Of a stretch of DNA of 64,000 nt, positions 6,884-37,444 are shown piece by piece. The stretch comes from an uncultured Candidatus Saccharibacteria bacterium (GTDB taxonomy: Bacteria > Patescibacteriota > Andersenbacteria > UBA10190). Location of the stretch: NCBI GenBank assembly GCA_964610055.1, contig CAZSUC010000001.1, positions 351,994 to 415,993 of the forward strand, written 5' to 3'. The notes below the pieces were generated by a model. It had not been told where the DNA came from. It did no database searches and saw only the letters and a list, made by a program, of their open reading frames with translations. How positions within the stretch are numbered: the stretch's first letter is position 1; each line of letters opens with the position of its first letter. Both the position numbers and the translations under genes were made by a program.

Positions 6884-7618
6884 CTAGTCCTGACATTCCC
6901 AGTTTTCCATAGTCTGCTGAAAAATGTCATTAATATAGTTAAAGAAAGTGCCAAACTTCTGATCCGGAAACGGACCCTCGTGCAAATCCCTTTCCGTACG
7001 CAGAGATTCAAGGCTCATCCGCAGCTGTGCCGGCGTCGTTGTGGCTTTAGCGTCCCTACGATTCAAAGCAGCTTTAATCCCTGCCTTAGTCACCGTCCAC
7101 AAGCAATCTGCTTCCCGCAATGCCCGTGGTAAAAATCCCGGCGGCAAACGCACTCCCAATTCAGGATCGTCATGAATAGCAATCAGGTCGACGATAGCCT
7201 GAATCTGATCTTGGCCGTACCAACCAGCGCTTGGCGCGGAGCGTAGCATCAGCGATGCCGCCCGTGCGCATTTCTGCATATGAATCTGAACATCCTGATT
7301 CGGGCAAACATCATGTAACAACGCCGCAGTTAAACCTACCATAGTCTCGGGCCAACTACAGTGATTTGCTACTGCCAGCCTCGCCATCATGTGCGTCACG
7401 AACAAGTGATGCTCAACCGGATTATTGGCCTCGGGATGGAGCCAATATTGATCCGTTAAAGCCATCATGGTTAATCGATGCAAGATTTCTTCCAATTTCC
7501 TAACATCATTAACCAAGCCAACTTCAGCTGCATGAATCGGTCGCAAAGCCTCACTTAAAAGAGCTTTCAAGACCTGGTCATTCGGACGGTCGTAATTCAA
7601 CCGCACTACATATGCCAT
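6884..7618 (-). CDS. HD-domain phosphohydrolase family protein
   Basis: 244 aa with H…HD metal-binding motifs (LLHDVC, IAIHDDPELG). Confidence 0.55.
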   Translation of the reverse strand: MAYVVRLNYDRPNDQVLKALLSEALRPIHAAEVGLVNDVRKLEEILHRLTMMALTDQYWLHPEANNPVEHHLFVTHMMARLAVANHCSWPETMVGLTAALLHDVCPNQDVQIHMQKCARAASLMLRSAPSAGWYGQDQIQAIVDLIAIHDDPELGVRLPPGFLPRALREADCLWTVTKAGIKAALNRRDAKATTTPAQLRMSLESLRTERDLHEGPFPDQKFGTFFNYINDIFQQTMENWECQD

Positions 7619-17725: not shown

Positions 17726-18735
17726 TTAAGATTACTAACTGGAAGCGCTTTTTCGCTTTTCTGATTGGCTTAATCGTCCTGCTTAGCCTTTTTCTTTTCT
17801 TTCGCCCTTGGCAAAATACCACCATTAAACGCAGTGGTGAGTTTGTAATCGCTGACGGCGTTCCTGCTGGTACTGTCTGGTCGAATTTAGTTTCCCAAAA
17901 TTTTAGTGCGCACATTTTTCCTTGGCGTTATCTTGCTTGGAAAATGTCCGCTGCTTCACAACTTAAATCCGGTACTTATCACTTAAATGTTGGAGAGTCA
18001 GCCGCAGATGTTATCCATCGGTTTATTTCCGGCGATGTTATTCCCGATGAACTCTCCTTAGTTTTTCCCGAAGGTTTTACTTTAGATCAAATTGCCGCTC
18101 GCGCTGCGGCCAAAGGTATTGGCACCGCTGCTGATTTTAAAGCCGCGGCCAAGCCTAATGCCTATACTGACCGCTTTTCTTTTCTCACCGATATTCCGGC
18201 TGGCCGTGATTTAGAAGGTTATCTTTTTCCTGATACCTACCAAGTTTTTGCCGATGATGATCCCGACGCTCTCATCACTCGTATGTTAGCCAATTTCAAC
18301 ACGAAACTATCTGACGAATTACGAGCAGACATTGCTGCATCCGGTCGTTCGCTTGACCAAATTGTTATCATGGCCAGTATTGTCGAGCGGGAAGTACAAA
18401 CCGACGATGATATGGCGACTGTCGCCGGTATTCTTTGGAAACGCTTTGACGAAGGGATGGGCTTAGATGTTGATGCTACTGTTCGCTATGTCCTGGATAA
18501 ATGGGACGGTGCTCTGACTGTAACTGATTTAGCCACGGATTCGCTGTACAACACTCGCAAATACGCCGGTCTGCCGCCCGGACCCATTAGTAATCCCGGT
18601 TTGCGCGCTCTAACTGCTGCTATCCGTCCCGAATCTTCCAACTACTATTATTATCTTTCCGCTCCAGACGGAACCACCTACTTTGCTCGCACTAACGACG
18701 AGCATAACCAGAATAAAGCGCAGTATCTCAAATGA
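17722..18735 (+). CDS. mltG: endolytic murein transglycosylase MltG (YceG family)
   Basis: N-terminal transmembrane segment plus the YceG motifs (FPEGFTL.QIA, YLFPDTYQ, ASIVEREV). Confidence 0.8.
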   Translation: MIKITNWKRFFAFLIGLIVLLSLFLFFRPWQNTTIKRSGEFVIADGVPAGTVWSNLVSQNFSAHIFPWRYLAWKMSAASQLKSGTYHLNVGESAADVIHRFISGDVIPDELSLVFPEGFTLDQIAARAAAKGIGTAADFKAAAKPNAYTDRFSFLTDIPAGRDLEGYLFPDTYQVFADDDPDALITRMLANFNTKLSDELRADIAASGRSLDQIVIMASIVEREVQTDDDMATVAGILWKRFDEGMGLDVDATVRYVLDKWDGALTVTDLATDSLYNTRKYAGLPPGPISNPGLRALTAAIRPESSNYYYYLSAPDGTTYFARTNDEHNQNKAQYLK

Positions 18736-19181
18736 GTCTAAATCCCGCACGCAATTACTACACAGTCGTTATTTCTAGTTACGTTCTTTTCCAGCGTGAC
18801 AACCAAGTTTTGCTTGCTCGCCGCATCAATACTGGTTATCGCGATGGCGAATATGGTGTCCCGGCTGGGCATATTGAAAAAGACGAGTTTGCCACCGAAG
18901 CAGCTATCCGTGAAATCAAGGAAGAAGTCGGAGTAAGGATAAAACCAGGCGATCTACGAATCGCCCACATTATGCACCGACATTGCGGTGACCACGAACG
19001 CATTGACTTCTTTTTTACTGCTACGCAATGGGAAGGTGAAATTACTAATACCGAACCGGAAAAATGCGATGACTTGCGCTGGTTTGCCTGGGACAGTTTG
19101 CCAACCAACACTATTCATTACGTTCGCGCCGCCATTGAGCGTTGGCACCAAGGCCAGTTCTTTTCTGAATTTACCGAATAA
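18732..19181 (+). CDS. NUDIX hydrolase
   Basis: Nudix box GHIEKDEFATEAAIREIKEEVGV (Gx5Ex7REUxEExGU). Confidence 0.8.
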   Translation: MSLNPARNYYTVVISSYVLFQRDNQVLLARRINTGYRDGEYGVPAGHIEKDEFATEAAIREIKEEVGVRIKPGDLRIAHIMHRHCGDHERIDFFFTATQWEGEITNTEPEKCDDLRWFAWDSLPTNTIHYVRAAIERWHQGQFFSEFTE

Positions 19182-19206
19182 AGCTCTAGTTCAAAAGTAA
19201 AAGAAA

Positions 19207-19238
19207 ACGGAGATAGACTCTAATGAGTCTATCTCCGT
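19207..19238 (-). terminator. rho-independent terminator (perfect 14-bp hairpin) downstream of the GC-rich gene
   Basis: acggagatagactc-taat-gagtctatctccgt. On the minus strand it is followed by a T-rich tract. Confidence 0.55.
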
Positions 19239-19260
19239 TGTGACACCAAAGTTCCAAAGT

Positions 19261-19893
19261 TCAAGCAACCACGCTTTCGGCGGACGGCACGCCCCACTTA
19301 GAGTCAACAATACTGCGCCGGCTGTCGAGCCTCGACACTCCGTGGTCCCCCCGATAGAGGTACGGCACACCCCCTGAGTCGTAGTAGCGAGAGCCGGTGA
19401 GATTCAAATCGTGGTGCTCCTCCAGCACCTCCGGAAAAATGATGGCGTGGACTAGGCCGTACCAGACCAGGTAAGAGATCCGGCCTTCAGCCTGGATATT
19501 TCCCATGGAGACGTTGGGCGCGATATTGCGCCGCCAATGCCCGTCTTCCACTCCCAAGAGTAAGTGGGCGCCGGCAGGAGCCAGTTCCAGGTCGATGAGG
19601 CATTCAGGATCGAGGTGGTTCCGACCTTTGATCCCGTTGACCTCCACCAAGGCCATGAGACCATTCAAGTCCAGCACCTCAGGTCGGCGCGGGACAACAA
19701 TGAACAGCTGCGGCATATTCGGCACGACCCTCGCCAGCCGATCCACGTCTGCCTTGCGCAGATCCAGGCCTTTGTCCTGCAAAATGCCTACCTGAAACTC
19801 AAAGAGTTCCTTGGGCGTGGGCAGCGGGATGACCGGCGCTTGCAACGCGCGGTACTGCGCATACGATAAGACAGGACGAGTCACGCTAGACAT
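19261..19893 (-). CDS. hypothetical protein encoded in a ~60% GC island
   Basis: 210-aa ORF. Local GC is about 60-67%, against about 40% in the flanks. The many overlapping spurious ORFs on both strands here are typical of high-GC DNA. No recognisable motif family. Confidence 0.5.
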   Translation of the reverse strand: MSSVTRPVLSYAQYRALQAPVIPLPTPKELFEFQVGILQDKGLDLRKADVDRLARVVPNMPQLFIVVPRRPEVLDLNGLMALVEVNGIKGRNHLDPECLIDLELAPAGAHLLLGVEDGHWRRNIAPNVSMGNIQAEGRISYLVWYGLVHAIIFPEVLEEHHDLNLTGSRYYDSGGVPYLYRGDHGVSRLDSRRSIVDSKWGVPSAESVVA

Positions 19894-19979
19894 GATCTAC
19901 TCCTTCGAAAAACCAAGTTTGAACCGTGAAAAGAGCCAAGTGCAATATCTTTATATCCCACGCATATCAGATGATTGTC

Positions 19980-20145
19980 AACATTGCAAATAAAACCAAA
20001 TTATGGCATACAATAACTAGTCATCCCAAGACCCAAGGCACCCATAAGTCCTTGGCAGGAAGGCAAAGAGGGGATAGTCAAAACTATCCGGTCGAACCTT
20101 TGCAACCCCATTTCCGCGGATGATCGCGGTTTTTTATTACCGCTT
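19980..20145 (+). promoter_or_regulatory. rplJ leader: putative promoter (TTGCAA…TACAAT) and structured L10-leader-like 5'UTR with attenuator hairpin plus T-tract
   Basis: TTGCAA (19982-19987) and TACAAT (20007-20012). Hairpins at 20071-20090 (ggatagtcaaaactatcc) and 20114-20129 (ccgcggatgatcgcgg), then TTTTTTATT, directly upstream of rplJ. Confidence 0.4.
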
Positions 20146-20170
20146 AAAATATCAACAAGTTATTCTCTTT

Positions 20171-20698
20171 ATGGCATTAACTCGCCAACAAAAAGAAGCA
20201 AAAGTAGTTGAAGCGGAAAATCATCTGAAATCTGCTCAAGCCGTGGTTTTCATGGCTTATGATGCCCTCGGAGTTAGCGATAGCGAAGAGCTGCGTGATC
20301 AGCTCTTTACCGCTGGCGTCCGTATGCGGGTTATTCCTAAACGCTTATTGCGTTTAGCGGCTCAAAACCTTAAGCTCGAGTTAAAATGTCCGGACTATGA
20401 TGGACAGATTGCTCTGCTTTGGTCGGATGCTGATGTTGTTGCTCCAGCAAAAACCTTACGTGAATTCGCCAAAAAACATGACAATGTTTCTATGGTCGAA
20501 GGAATCATGGAAGGTCGGGTTTTAACAACGGATGAAGTCCAAGCCTTAGCCCAATTACCAGGTCTGGAAGAATTACGCGCCAAGTTCGTTGGTACTATTG
20601 CCAACCCGATGCGTGGTTTTGTCTCCGTCTTATCTGGTACACAACGTGGATTAGTGTGCGCTTTAAAGGCAATCGCTGATTCCAAACCAACAGCTTAA
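20171..20698 (+). CDS. rplJ: 50S ribosomal protein uL10
   Basis: MALTRQQKEAKV… is the L10 N-terminus. The ORF track shows the frame open from 20120, but Met 20171 fits L10. rplL follows. Confidence 0.9.
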   Translation: MALTRQQKEAKVVEAENHLKSAQAVVFMAYDALGVSDSEELRDQLFTAGVRMRVIPKRLLRLAAQNLKLELKCPDYDGQIALLWSDADVVAPAKTLREFAKKHDNVSMVEGIMEGRVLTTDEVQALAQLPGLEELRAKFVGTIANPMRGFVSVLSGTQRGLVCALKAIADSKPTA

Positions 20699-36733: not shown

Positions 36734-37444
36734 TCACTTGCGCTTGCACTCGCGCCGCAAGGCTTCAGCGACCTCAAAACGTGAACTCACACCCAGTTTA
36801 TCCAAGATGCTATGCACATGGTTCTTTACCGTGTGAATTGACAGGTTTAATTCGCTTGCAATCTTAGCGTTAGACCATCCTTTGGACAAATAACTAGCAA
36901 TCCTCCTCTCTTGGTTGGTTAAACAGCGTCCTTTAGTTATAATGTCCAAAATTGCTGCCGGCACTAAGCCTATTTTCTCTCCAGCAAAGATGCGTAGTAA
37001 AAGTGCCTGAAAATCTTGTAATCCGTTACTATCTGACACAATCCCAGCAATCCTTCCTGATCCCATCATGTGGGCTAATTGCAATGTCATTGATGTCTCT
37101 CCGAACATGATGATTACAAACAGACTGCCCTTACGACCCCGGCCCCGCTCAATATCAACGATGTCCTGCCAATAGTTGCTTATCGTCTCGTTGTCCATAA
37201 CAACAAAGTCAGGTTTTTTCAAACGCAGCGCATCTAGCAGCCAGTCCTGATCTGGGGGGCTGCGGTTCAAACGTAAACACACCGGTTCAACCGCATCCAT
37301 TTGAGAAATTGCCTCCAACAAAACCTCTTCCCGTAGGAATTGTTGCATCACTACCGCTACTCGGTAGATTCTTGGGGTGATCATGACTTCCTCCTTGTCA
37401 TGAGAGAAAAGAACTGCCTCCAACGCTGCTACATCGTACCCCAA
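36734..37444 (-). CDS. LuxR-family transcriptional regulator (C-terminal HTH; N-terminal degenerate receiver-like domain)
   Basis: C-terminal …LTNQERRIASYLSKGWSNAKIASELNLSIHTVKNHVHSILDKLGV… is a LuxR/GerE HTH. Confidence 0.65.
   Translation of the reverse strand: MGYDVAALEAVLFSHDKEEVMITPRIYRVAVVMQQFLREEVLLEAISQMDAVEPVCLRLNRSPPDQDWLLDALRLKKPDFVVMDNETISNYWQDIVDIERGRGRKGSLFVIIMFGETSMTLQLAHMMGSGRIAGIVSDSNGLQDFQALLLRIFAGEKIGLVPAAILDIITKGRCLTNQERRIASYLSKGWSNAKIASELNLSIHTVKNHVHSILDKLGVSSRFEVAEALRRECKRK

Follow-up and report, generated by a model that had tools for sequence, protein, structure and literature searches.

The 64-kb stretch of contig CAZSUC010000001.1 analyzed here (the window, 64,000 nucleotides in all) raises the question of why a single minus-strand gene at 19261-19893, lying between a NUDIX hydrolase gene and the leader of the ribosomal protein gene rplJ, should be so much richer in G+C than its surroundings. 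The gene encodes a 210-residue protein of the family DUF5701, and its composition, its absence from the same site in relatives and the conservation of its non-coding flanks at other loci make it probable that it belongs to a horizontally acquired, self-contained expression cassette, subject to repeated transfer and later amelioration. The source is a small genome of the Candidate Phyla Radiation (CPR, or Patescibacteria) from a sparsely sampled lineage, and the DUF5701 protein is also encoded on an NCBI contig of 698 kb. The parts of the cassette and its right-hand boundary are as follows.

19261-19893, minus strand: coding sequence of the DUF5701 family, 210 aa, ATG start and TGA stop (from the list of open reading frames, Pfam and composition).
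19246-19260, minus strand: two tandem CTTTGG motifs right after the TGA stop, read from the sequence as ACTTTGGAACTTTGG.
19197-19239, minus strand: predicted intrinsic terminator of the cassette, with stem arms at 19206-19220 and 19225-19239 and a T-run, TTTTCTTTT, at 19205-19197.
19894-19992, minus strand: putative cassette promoter and leader of about 50 nt, from the upstream alignment across homologues.
19971-19985, no strand: right junction, GATTGTCAACATTGC, a segment of the rplJ promoter region common to the related contig L045 that, read on the minus strand, gives the TTGACAA of the cassette -35 box.

The GC content of the open reading frame (ORF) is 59.2-59.4% compared with 43.8% for the window, ranging from 53 to 67% in its successive 60-nt lines, and no segment in the rest of the window rises above about 51%. 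Among all 633-nt windows (mean 43.8%, standard deviation 2.8%) the ORF is the maximum, with a z-score of about 5.5, which bears out the high-GC, single-gene island described in an earlier note on this DNA. By codon position the values are 66/39/72%, and the GC content at third codon positions (GC3) is 0.72, compared with a mean of 0.38 (standard deviation 0.061; z = 5.6) over 65 ORFs of the window, the second-highest of which reaches 0.51. The sole other compositional outliers in the window are the minus-strand ORFs at 6884-7618 and 36734-37444, with GC3 of 0.51 and 0.50 (z about 2). Recoding the DUF5701 protein with host codon usage predicts a GC content of 46.7%, indicating that codon choice accounts for about 13 of the 15.5 excess GC points; the gene prefers CTG, GTG, CCG and GCG or GCC, and the host TTA, GTT, CCT and GCT. 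Since GC3 of the ribosomal protein genes of the source genome is low (0.36), the codon preference of highly expressed genes is excluded as the cause. The step in GC content matches the limits of the coding sequence, with the non-coding parts of the cassette at 38-39%, and, because the dinucleotide relative-abundance signature of the segment is no outlier (rank 22 of 317), the deviation is confined to base and codon composition. An independent Logan assembly (SRR8925805) is 100% identical to the window across 9.3 kb, and this base-for-base agreement argues against a chimeric join.

Two further candidate causes of the high GC content, an overlapping or antisense gene and a structured mRNA, were rejected. 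The long ORFs in alternative frames that had been remarked on earlier do exist, but the open stretches of the window copy are no longer than those of 200 synonymous-codon shuffles, and no frame is consistently open in 17 homologues, the +2 frame being marginal in 5 of them. A structured mRNA is likewise not indicated, the fold z-score being +0.4.

The 210-residue product, in which the earlier note could place no motif, scores 33.8 bits on the Pfam profile DUF5701 (PF18959; E-value 3.7e-8), above the gathering cut-off of 27.4. Positions 36-154 of the 206 in this hidden Markov model align with residues 61-174 of the protein. The same profile matches 37/37 aligned relatives (best E-value 4.5e-16), and a profile of the close relatives can be aligned over its full length with members that PF18959 covers completely, such as P0123; the Pfam seed itself is distant from the CPR clade that holds the window protein. 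The window protein and its relatives fall in one length class of about 200-215 aa with a single domain, and no second Pfam domain that might reveal a function through fusion was found in the longer members. A word-based search of 5.8 billion clustered proteins found just three other proteins, at 55-57% identity, and a profile search of 1.84 billion representatives gave 422 clusters, 46 of them below 1e-30 and nearly all metagenome singletons; the named members come from Ca. Andersenbacteria, Ca. Yanofskybacteria and the 'Parcubacteria group'. NCBIfam and PHROGs held no match to the window protein, sequence and profile searches of the PDB were empty, and no papers on DUF5701 or PF18959 were found in the literature.

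In the 37-sequence alignment G90, D117 and G118 are invariant and P68, E116, R121, N123, R138, Y141, G146, H149, H161, G167 and S168 nearly so; the family-conserved residues retained by the window protein also include G201 and the conserved pair S168-R169. AlphaFold2, run with this alignment, gives a confident model (predicted local distance difference test, pLDDT, 95.3; predicted template modeling score, pTM, 0.88) with three helices at the N terminus and an alpha/beta domain after them. Foldseek found no match to the model with an E-value below 0.001 in the PDB or BFVD (best E-value 0.65, template modeling score below 0.25). The conservation pattern looks enzyme-like, and the product is most likely a soluble, dispensable accessory enzyme expressed from its own putative promoter.

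Upstream of the gene, a -35 element TTGACA at 19981-19976 on the minus strand is followed by an A/T-rich, -10-like box and a conserved leader, TTGCACTTGGCTCTTTTCAC, and a Shine-Dalgarno sequence GGAG (19903-19900, minus strand) stands 6 nt ahead of the ATG. The 100 nt before the ATG can be aligned in the window, L002, L004, L005, L022 and L023/L026, and the elements held in common are TTGACA, without variation, then a -10-like box 17-19 nt further on, a leader of the form TYGYACWTT-GnCCTTT-...CCAA...GTTTTT, GGAG and ATG. A sequence-only covariance model of this alignment recovers the untrained sites of L036 and L037 (E-values 6e-7 and 2e-5), whose DUF5701 proteins are 31-35% identical to the window protein, and outside the training set it matches nothing besides these two upstream sites in 297 kb searched on both strands. 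The region 19894-19992 presumably acts as a promoter, judging from this conservation; a simple promoter-consensus scan did not call it. These data suggest a conserved, previously undescribed cis-regulatory element, and Rfam gave no match in 19150-20250, even at E<=1. A leader hairpin that sequesters the Shine-Dalgarno sequence was considered and rejected: a CU-rich box pairs with it in 5 of 8 single-sequence folds, but the z-score is about 0 and RNAalifold gives no consensus pairs for the leaders.

At the other end of the gene, the terminator stem has 15 bp (7 of them GC pairs), 100% complementarity, a 4-nt loop and a fold z-score of -4.8; the hairpin is thus perfect, as previously claimed, but one base pair longer than the 14 bp given. 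At the sequence level, 19197-19239 has the stem-loop and immediate T-run of an intrinsic terminator. Since TTTTCTTTT trails the stem on the minus strand and the plus strand carries no T-run, the hairpin is predicted to serve the DUF5701 gene and not the NUDIX gene, in keeping with the assertion that the gene has a terminator of its own. The stem CGGAGAT(R)(R)A...ATCTCCG with its T-run is common to the window, L002, L005, L023 and L026, the last of which shows a compensatory change (AGAGAT/ATCTCT), and across all fetched loci the pattern GGAGAT-N6-24-ATCTCC occurs only downstream of those DUF5701 genes, apart from one stray match. Between stop and hairpin lie the CTTTGG motifs. TGA is the stop in 18 of 24 family loci, with WCYTTGG directly after it and then tandem CT(1-4)GG with a period of about 8-9 nt; downstream of family stops these motifs number 0.85 per 50 nt compared with a background of 0.28, being prominent in L002 (6631-6680), L012, L033, L034 and L029 and present after the stop in L016 and L042 also. 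The idea that the hairpin arm or the CTTTGG motif is a DNA-uptake sequence was dropped because neither is enriched in the window, CGGAGAT and CTTTGGAAC showing no enrichment elsewhere in it.

Whether the gene was gained at this site was assessed with three contigs (L043, L045 and L047) reached via L10 homologues, in which the gene order is shared with the window. These contigs, the stretch that they lack and the NUDIX gene included in that stretch are listed here.

L043: L10 77%, YceG 68% and NTP-transferase 74% identical; NTP-transferase, YceG and L10 in shared order; 120-bp spacer.
L047: L10 60% identical; YceG and L10 in shared order; 131-bp spacer.
L045: 54-58% identical, an outgroup equidistant to the window and L043; 277-bp spacer before L10.
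18736-19970, no strand: stretch missing in the three relatives (NUDIX gene plus DUF5701 cassette), from the yceG-rplJ spacer alignment.
18732-19181, plus strand: NUDIX hydrolase gene, outside the cassette (Pfam NUDIX, 2.5e-19).

Both the NUDIX and the DUF5701 gene are missing from L043, L045 and L047, where yceG stands directly ahead of the rplJ leader. The position between the NUDIX gene and rplJ, which had been taken for conserved core synteny, is not supported as such: what is conserved is yceG followed by rplJ, and NUDIX is missing in 3/3 relatives. Homology in the spacer resumes only at about 19971 (L045) or 20003 (L043), so that 18736 to about 19970 constitutes an indel, and because three lineages including an outgroup are without the cassette, a single gain explains the pattern more parsimoniously than losses on two or three occasions. 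A search with L10 of the GTDB species representatives gave as best named match a Komeilibacteria protein (42%), too distant for synteny; the best named L10 relatives overall are those of a Patescibacteria group bacterium (49%) and of Ca. Komeilibacteria (42%).

The NUDIX gene has a host-like GC3 (0.447, z +1.1) and was found beside DUF5701 in no other examined locus, and for these reasons it is treated as a separate addition, possibly one older than the cassette. Its ATG overlaps the yceG stop (ATGA), and it is bracketed by an imperfect 19-nt direct repeat (16/19), CTCAAATGAGTCTAAATCC at 18727-18745 and CTCTAATGAGTCTATCTCC at 19218-19236, the second copy of which lies within the cassette hairpin; chance would produce about 0.1 repeats of this kind.

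Elsewhere, each examined homologue is a lone gene whose neighbors differ by locus, and more than 20 other contigs show the lone-cassette layout. The homologues beside which promoter/leader and terminator are conserved occupy at least six genomic contexts unrelated to one another. The neighbors include def-fmt/priA, EF-P, HrcA, MsrAB with a methyltransferase, PMT glycosyltransferases, GT2/GT4, ABC transporters, T2SS-F, an ArsP permease, a large serine recombinase and a histidine kinase. No conserved partner gene was found among these neighborhoods, glycosyltransferases recurring weakly (L004, L036/L037, L038). The serine recombinase (Resolvase, Recombinase and Zn_ribbon_recom domains; L033, 6669-8255, minus strand), encoded on a 423-kb contig with a GC content of 56%, directly follows a DUF5701 copy and is convergent with it; it is the only clear mobile-element-like neighbor seen. 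In L004 (6001-6849 and 6813-7478) the closest homologue, P0003, has a frameshift close to the 3' end, past which another frame restores ...GWGAPSAGSVLGI*, and its immediate neighbor, on the opposite strand, is a weak Y1-transposase (IS200-like) gene. L016 and L017 agree at 99.9% over 5.75 kb, a stretch that takes in the DUF5701 gene and about 137 nt more, and from position about 5755 they are unrelated; either the strains differ by a rearrangement just beyond the cassette or an assembly breaks there, with no clear link to the cassette.

Foreign DNA is usually AT-richer than its host, and the DUF5701 cassette is usually GC-richer. When the DUF5701 gene of 24 distinct loci was compared with the mean of its flanking ORFs, its GC3 was the higher of the two in 23 (Wilcoxon p 1.6e-5) and the highest of the locus in 17, the largest excess (+0.34) being that of the window copy. 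GC-rich coding is not obligatory, since the excess is about 0 in L036/L037 (+0.02) and in L023/L026 (+0.03 in L023), which have the same context in diverged genomes, and -0.20 in L031, a high-GC host. The composition of the gene is thus decoupled from that of its host in both directions, and repeated transfer with later amelioration is the simplest account of this pattern. The earlier note had reasoned that a gene present at one locus throughout its clade with a similar composition shift would not be a recent arrival. The DUF5701 gene does not keep to one locus, but the same shift recurs family-wide at other loci and is therefore a property of the family.

Divergence between close pairs adds a further signal. 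For L036 (6001-6624) and L037 (5642-6265) the synonymous divergence (dS) of the DUF5701 genes is 0.14, whereas each of the six flanking genes has a higher value (0.26-0.66). The ratio of nonsynonymous to synonymous divergence (dN/dS) reaches about 0.7 in L036/L037 and L023/L026, both of them close CPR pairs, compared with 0.07-0.20 in flanking genes; in the high-GC pair L038/L040 it is 0.16. A high dN/dS with a low dS points to relaxed or diversifying selection, recent allelic exchange or synonymous-site constraint.

Taken together, the preferred account is that 19197-19985, approximately, is a monocistronic expression cassette of about 0.8 kb, which would comprise a sigma-70-type -35 element, a leader of about 50 nt with GGAG, a 210-codon ORF, TGA, CTTTGG repeats and a hairpin terminator. 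The unit transferred would have had about these limits because promoter/leader and terminator are both conserved beside homologues. The cassette was presumably gained horizontally by a CPR/Patescibacteria genome, in which it now lies in the yceG(mltG)-rplJ spacer, divergent from rplJ, and its high GC content would be almost wholly foreign codon usage. Cassettes of this family would move repeatedly between genomes, mostly arriving GC3-richer than the host and then ameliorating, with the window copy the least ameliorated yet seen. Entry may have been by DNA uptake followed by illegitimate or microhomology recombination, and the microhomology at the right junction could have had a role in integration.

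Several observations weigh against this account. The clade nearest the window retains a GC3 of 0.52-0.72 at about 50-57% protein identity in hosts of 42-47% GC, and so persistent an excess across a diverged clade in low-GC hosts is awkward for simple amelioration. No donor was identified: the closest homologues are 51-57% identical, and because their hosts are all of 42-44% GC, a GC-rich source is something that we infer and do not see, although GC-richer CPR donors exist, relatives of the host lineage reaching 55% GC (L045). The cassette ends show no target-site duplication or terminal inverted repeat, the nearest tRNA is 7-8 kb off, and Pfam detected no recombinase, transposase or integrase in the ORFs scanned between 12.7 and 28.4 kb of the window (not every ORF), which are of housekeeping type or without a Pfam match. 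Plasmid or phage copies were found neither in PLSDB and INPHARED (tblastn) nor in IMG/VR, collections in which CPR elements are poorly represented. The enzyme reading draws on the conservation pattern, the Foldseek search being empty. Finally, recency is weakly bounded because the nearest empty-site relative is 68-77% identical: of the earlier claim of a recent acquisition, the foreign and added gene stands, but 'recent' means only after the split from that relative.

It follows from the low-GC clade that keeps its GC3 and from the want of a sampled GC-rich donor that selection or biased conversion maintaining GC3 has to be kept as a live rival. In this reading, which we regard as rather unlikely, the GC-rich codons would be intrinsic to DUF5701 or selected in it, by rare-codon throttling of a harmful protein or by GC-biased gene conversion, and would be no footprint of a donor; the gene might still be mobile, but its composition would be uninformative on the time of arrival. 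The excess in 23 of 24 loci, held through the window's clade in hosts of 42-47% GC, fits such an explanation, as does the exact coincidence of the GC step with a coding sequence flanked by cassette DNA of 38-39% GC, and the low dS of L036/L037 (0.14) could mean synonymous-site constraint. Members with an intact ORF and the conserved leader nevertheless lack the excess (L036/L037, L023), L031 has the reverse (-0.20), and there is neither an overlapping ORF nor an mRNA structure signal (z +0.4) that would call for such codons. The earlier suggestion of a defense-related gene, here framed as single-gene anti-phage defense, abortive infection or a toxin-like conflict gene, is unlikely. A patchy, singleton-rich distribution, a lone gene with its own putative promoter, horizontal transfer, the dN/dS near 0.7 of L036/L037 and L023/L026, the serine recombinase beside one copy and the frameshift in another (L004) are all compatible with it, but PADLOC-DB v2 gave no match for the window protein and none that is meaningful for its 37 relatives, and PHROGs gave none. 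In addition, the neighbors are housekeeping or envelope genes and never defense islands, there is no conserved antitoxin-like partner and no phage or plasmid copy, no nuclease, nucleotidyltransferase (NTase), TIR or Sir2-like fold was detected, and dN/dS is 0.16 in L038/L040.

An autonomous minimal mobile element, in which DUF5701 would be a new kind of transposase or homing nuclease and in which the hairpin and CTTTGG repeats would form the ends, is very unlikely. Its size of about 0.8 kb, single ORF, subterminal hairpin and intergenic position between housekeeping genes without inverted repeats or target duplications recall IS200-type elements and free-standing homing endonuclease genes, and acidic, His and Tyr residues are conserved. 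Nevertheless, the window holds a single copy and the protein search assigned no other homologue to this genome, neither Pfam nor Foldseek revealed the signature of a known nuclease or of a Y1/HUH, DDE, serine or tyrosine recombinase, and the 'ends' are fully explained as promoter/leader and intrinsic terminator, with a hairpin at one end and with CGGAGAT and CTTTGGAAC not enriched in the rest of the window. A more speculative and doubtful reading is this: DUF5701 cassettes would be an unrecognized minimal selfish class of 'plug-and-play' units circulating among CPR and other bacteria, each carrying one novel-fold enzyme, either a novel DNA-mobilizing enzyme or an immunity or addiction factor, with a strongly conserved promoter/leader and terminator. 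In that case the GC-rich codons and CTTTGG would be functional, such that the codons might throttle translation of a harmful or conflict-related protein or the repeats serve as recognition sites for mobilization. Least probable of all, and hardly to be credited, is that the cassette is ancestral at this site and was lost in relatives, or that it is a misassembly or contaminant. Losses are conceivable with the nearest relative only 68-77% identical, and the NUDIX gene overlaps the yceG stop like an operon member; yet three lineages including outgroups are without the cassette, its codon usage is extreme, two assemblies agree, both junctions lie in host-like sequence tens of bases from an intact promoter and terminator, and lone cassettes recur on more than 20 contigs.

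The surroundings of the cassette yielded observations of their own. The neighbors in the window are MurB, sortases, a CAP-domain protein, NTP-transferase, YceG/MltG, NUDIX, L10, L7/L12 and a ClpB-like AAA protein, and the order in L045 is CAP, NTP-transferase, YceG, L10, L12, a 123-aa protein, ClpB-like protein and a 759-aa protein. Over the whole 12.7 kb of L045, compared with 13.7-27 kb of the window, gene order is fully conserved at 55% as against 44% GC, so genome GC has shifted by about 11 points within the CPR clade. The rplJ leader (20005-20170, plus strand, in the window; 2183-2342 in L043; 5425-5612 in L045) is conserved in three CPR genomes with the elements GTCATCCCAAGACCCAAGGC...CCTTGGCAGGAAG...CCGCGGATGnnCGCGGTTTTT and contains an attenuator-like hairpin, CCGCGGATGnnCGCGG-TTTTT, at 20114-20129. 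Possibly this is the form that the L10 leader takes in CPR genomes; the scan of 19150-20250 assigned it to no Rfam family at E<=1. The mechanical L10 ORF at 20120-20698 (plus strand, 192 aa), which public gene calls give as well, begins within the leader hairpin; the start that agrees with homologues, MALTRQQKE, lies at 20171 and gives a protein of 175 aa.

The cassette thus provides a clean empty-site case of gene gain beside an rplJ leader in a lineage with few sequenced relatives, and the unit of transfer would be a complete expression cassette whose promoter/leader is recognizable even beside proteins of 31-35% identity. The family combines a confident predicted fold with no solved or viral structural match and with a GC3 systematically richer than that of its hosts. 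A function, if found, would annotate a few hundred dark-matter proteins and might show how small cassettes spread among episymbiotic bacteria without obvious mobile-element machinery.

Among known systems, the cassette resembles IS200/IS605 elements in its length (about 0.7-0.8 kb), its one small ORF, its perfect subterminal hairpin, here doubling as terminator, and its lack of terminal inverted repeats and target duplication. Those elements, however, encode a Y1 HUH transposase (PF01797), have hairpins at both ends and are usually multicopy, whereas the cassette protein matches DUF5701 only and has no HUH fold, and the cassette has a hairpin at its 3' end only, one copy in the window, an ordinary putative promoter and an intrinsic terminator. 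With integron cassettes it shares a lone ORF with an adjacent hairpin, a composition unlike that of the host and a range of contexts, but integron cassettes are promoterless, carry attC, whose stem is imperfect, and lie in arrays beside intI, whereas this one is solitary and has its own putative promoter and a perfect stem with a T-run; no integrase was noticed near it in general scans, which were not aimed at intI or attC. It is like the single-gene defense systems of PADLOC in being patchy, mobile, lone and, in some pairs, fast-evolving, and differs from them in having no profile match, defense-island context or recognizable effector fold. In Patescibacteria, hundreds of islands and single-gene transfers have been described, mostly between Patescibacteria and including ribosomal protein genes (mSystems 2025, PMC12455944). 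As in those islets, we find in a CPR genome a compositionally deviant, laterally acquired gene: deviation in composition and codon usage and absence from syntenic relatives are both observed, and mobility hallmarks are not. To that extent it adds one orphan gene to those that streamlined CPR genomes are already known to gain by lateral transfer. What sets the cassette apart from the islets is the recurrence, in many genomes, of a single 0.8-kb unit whose promoter, leader and terminator are conserved.

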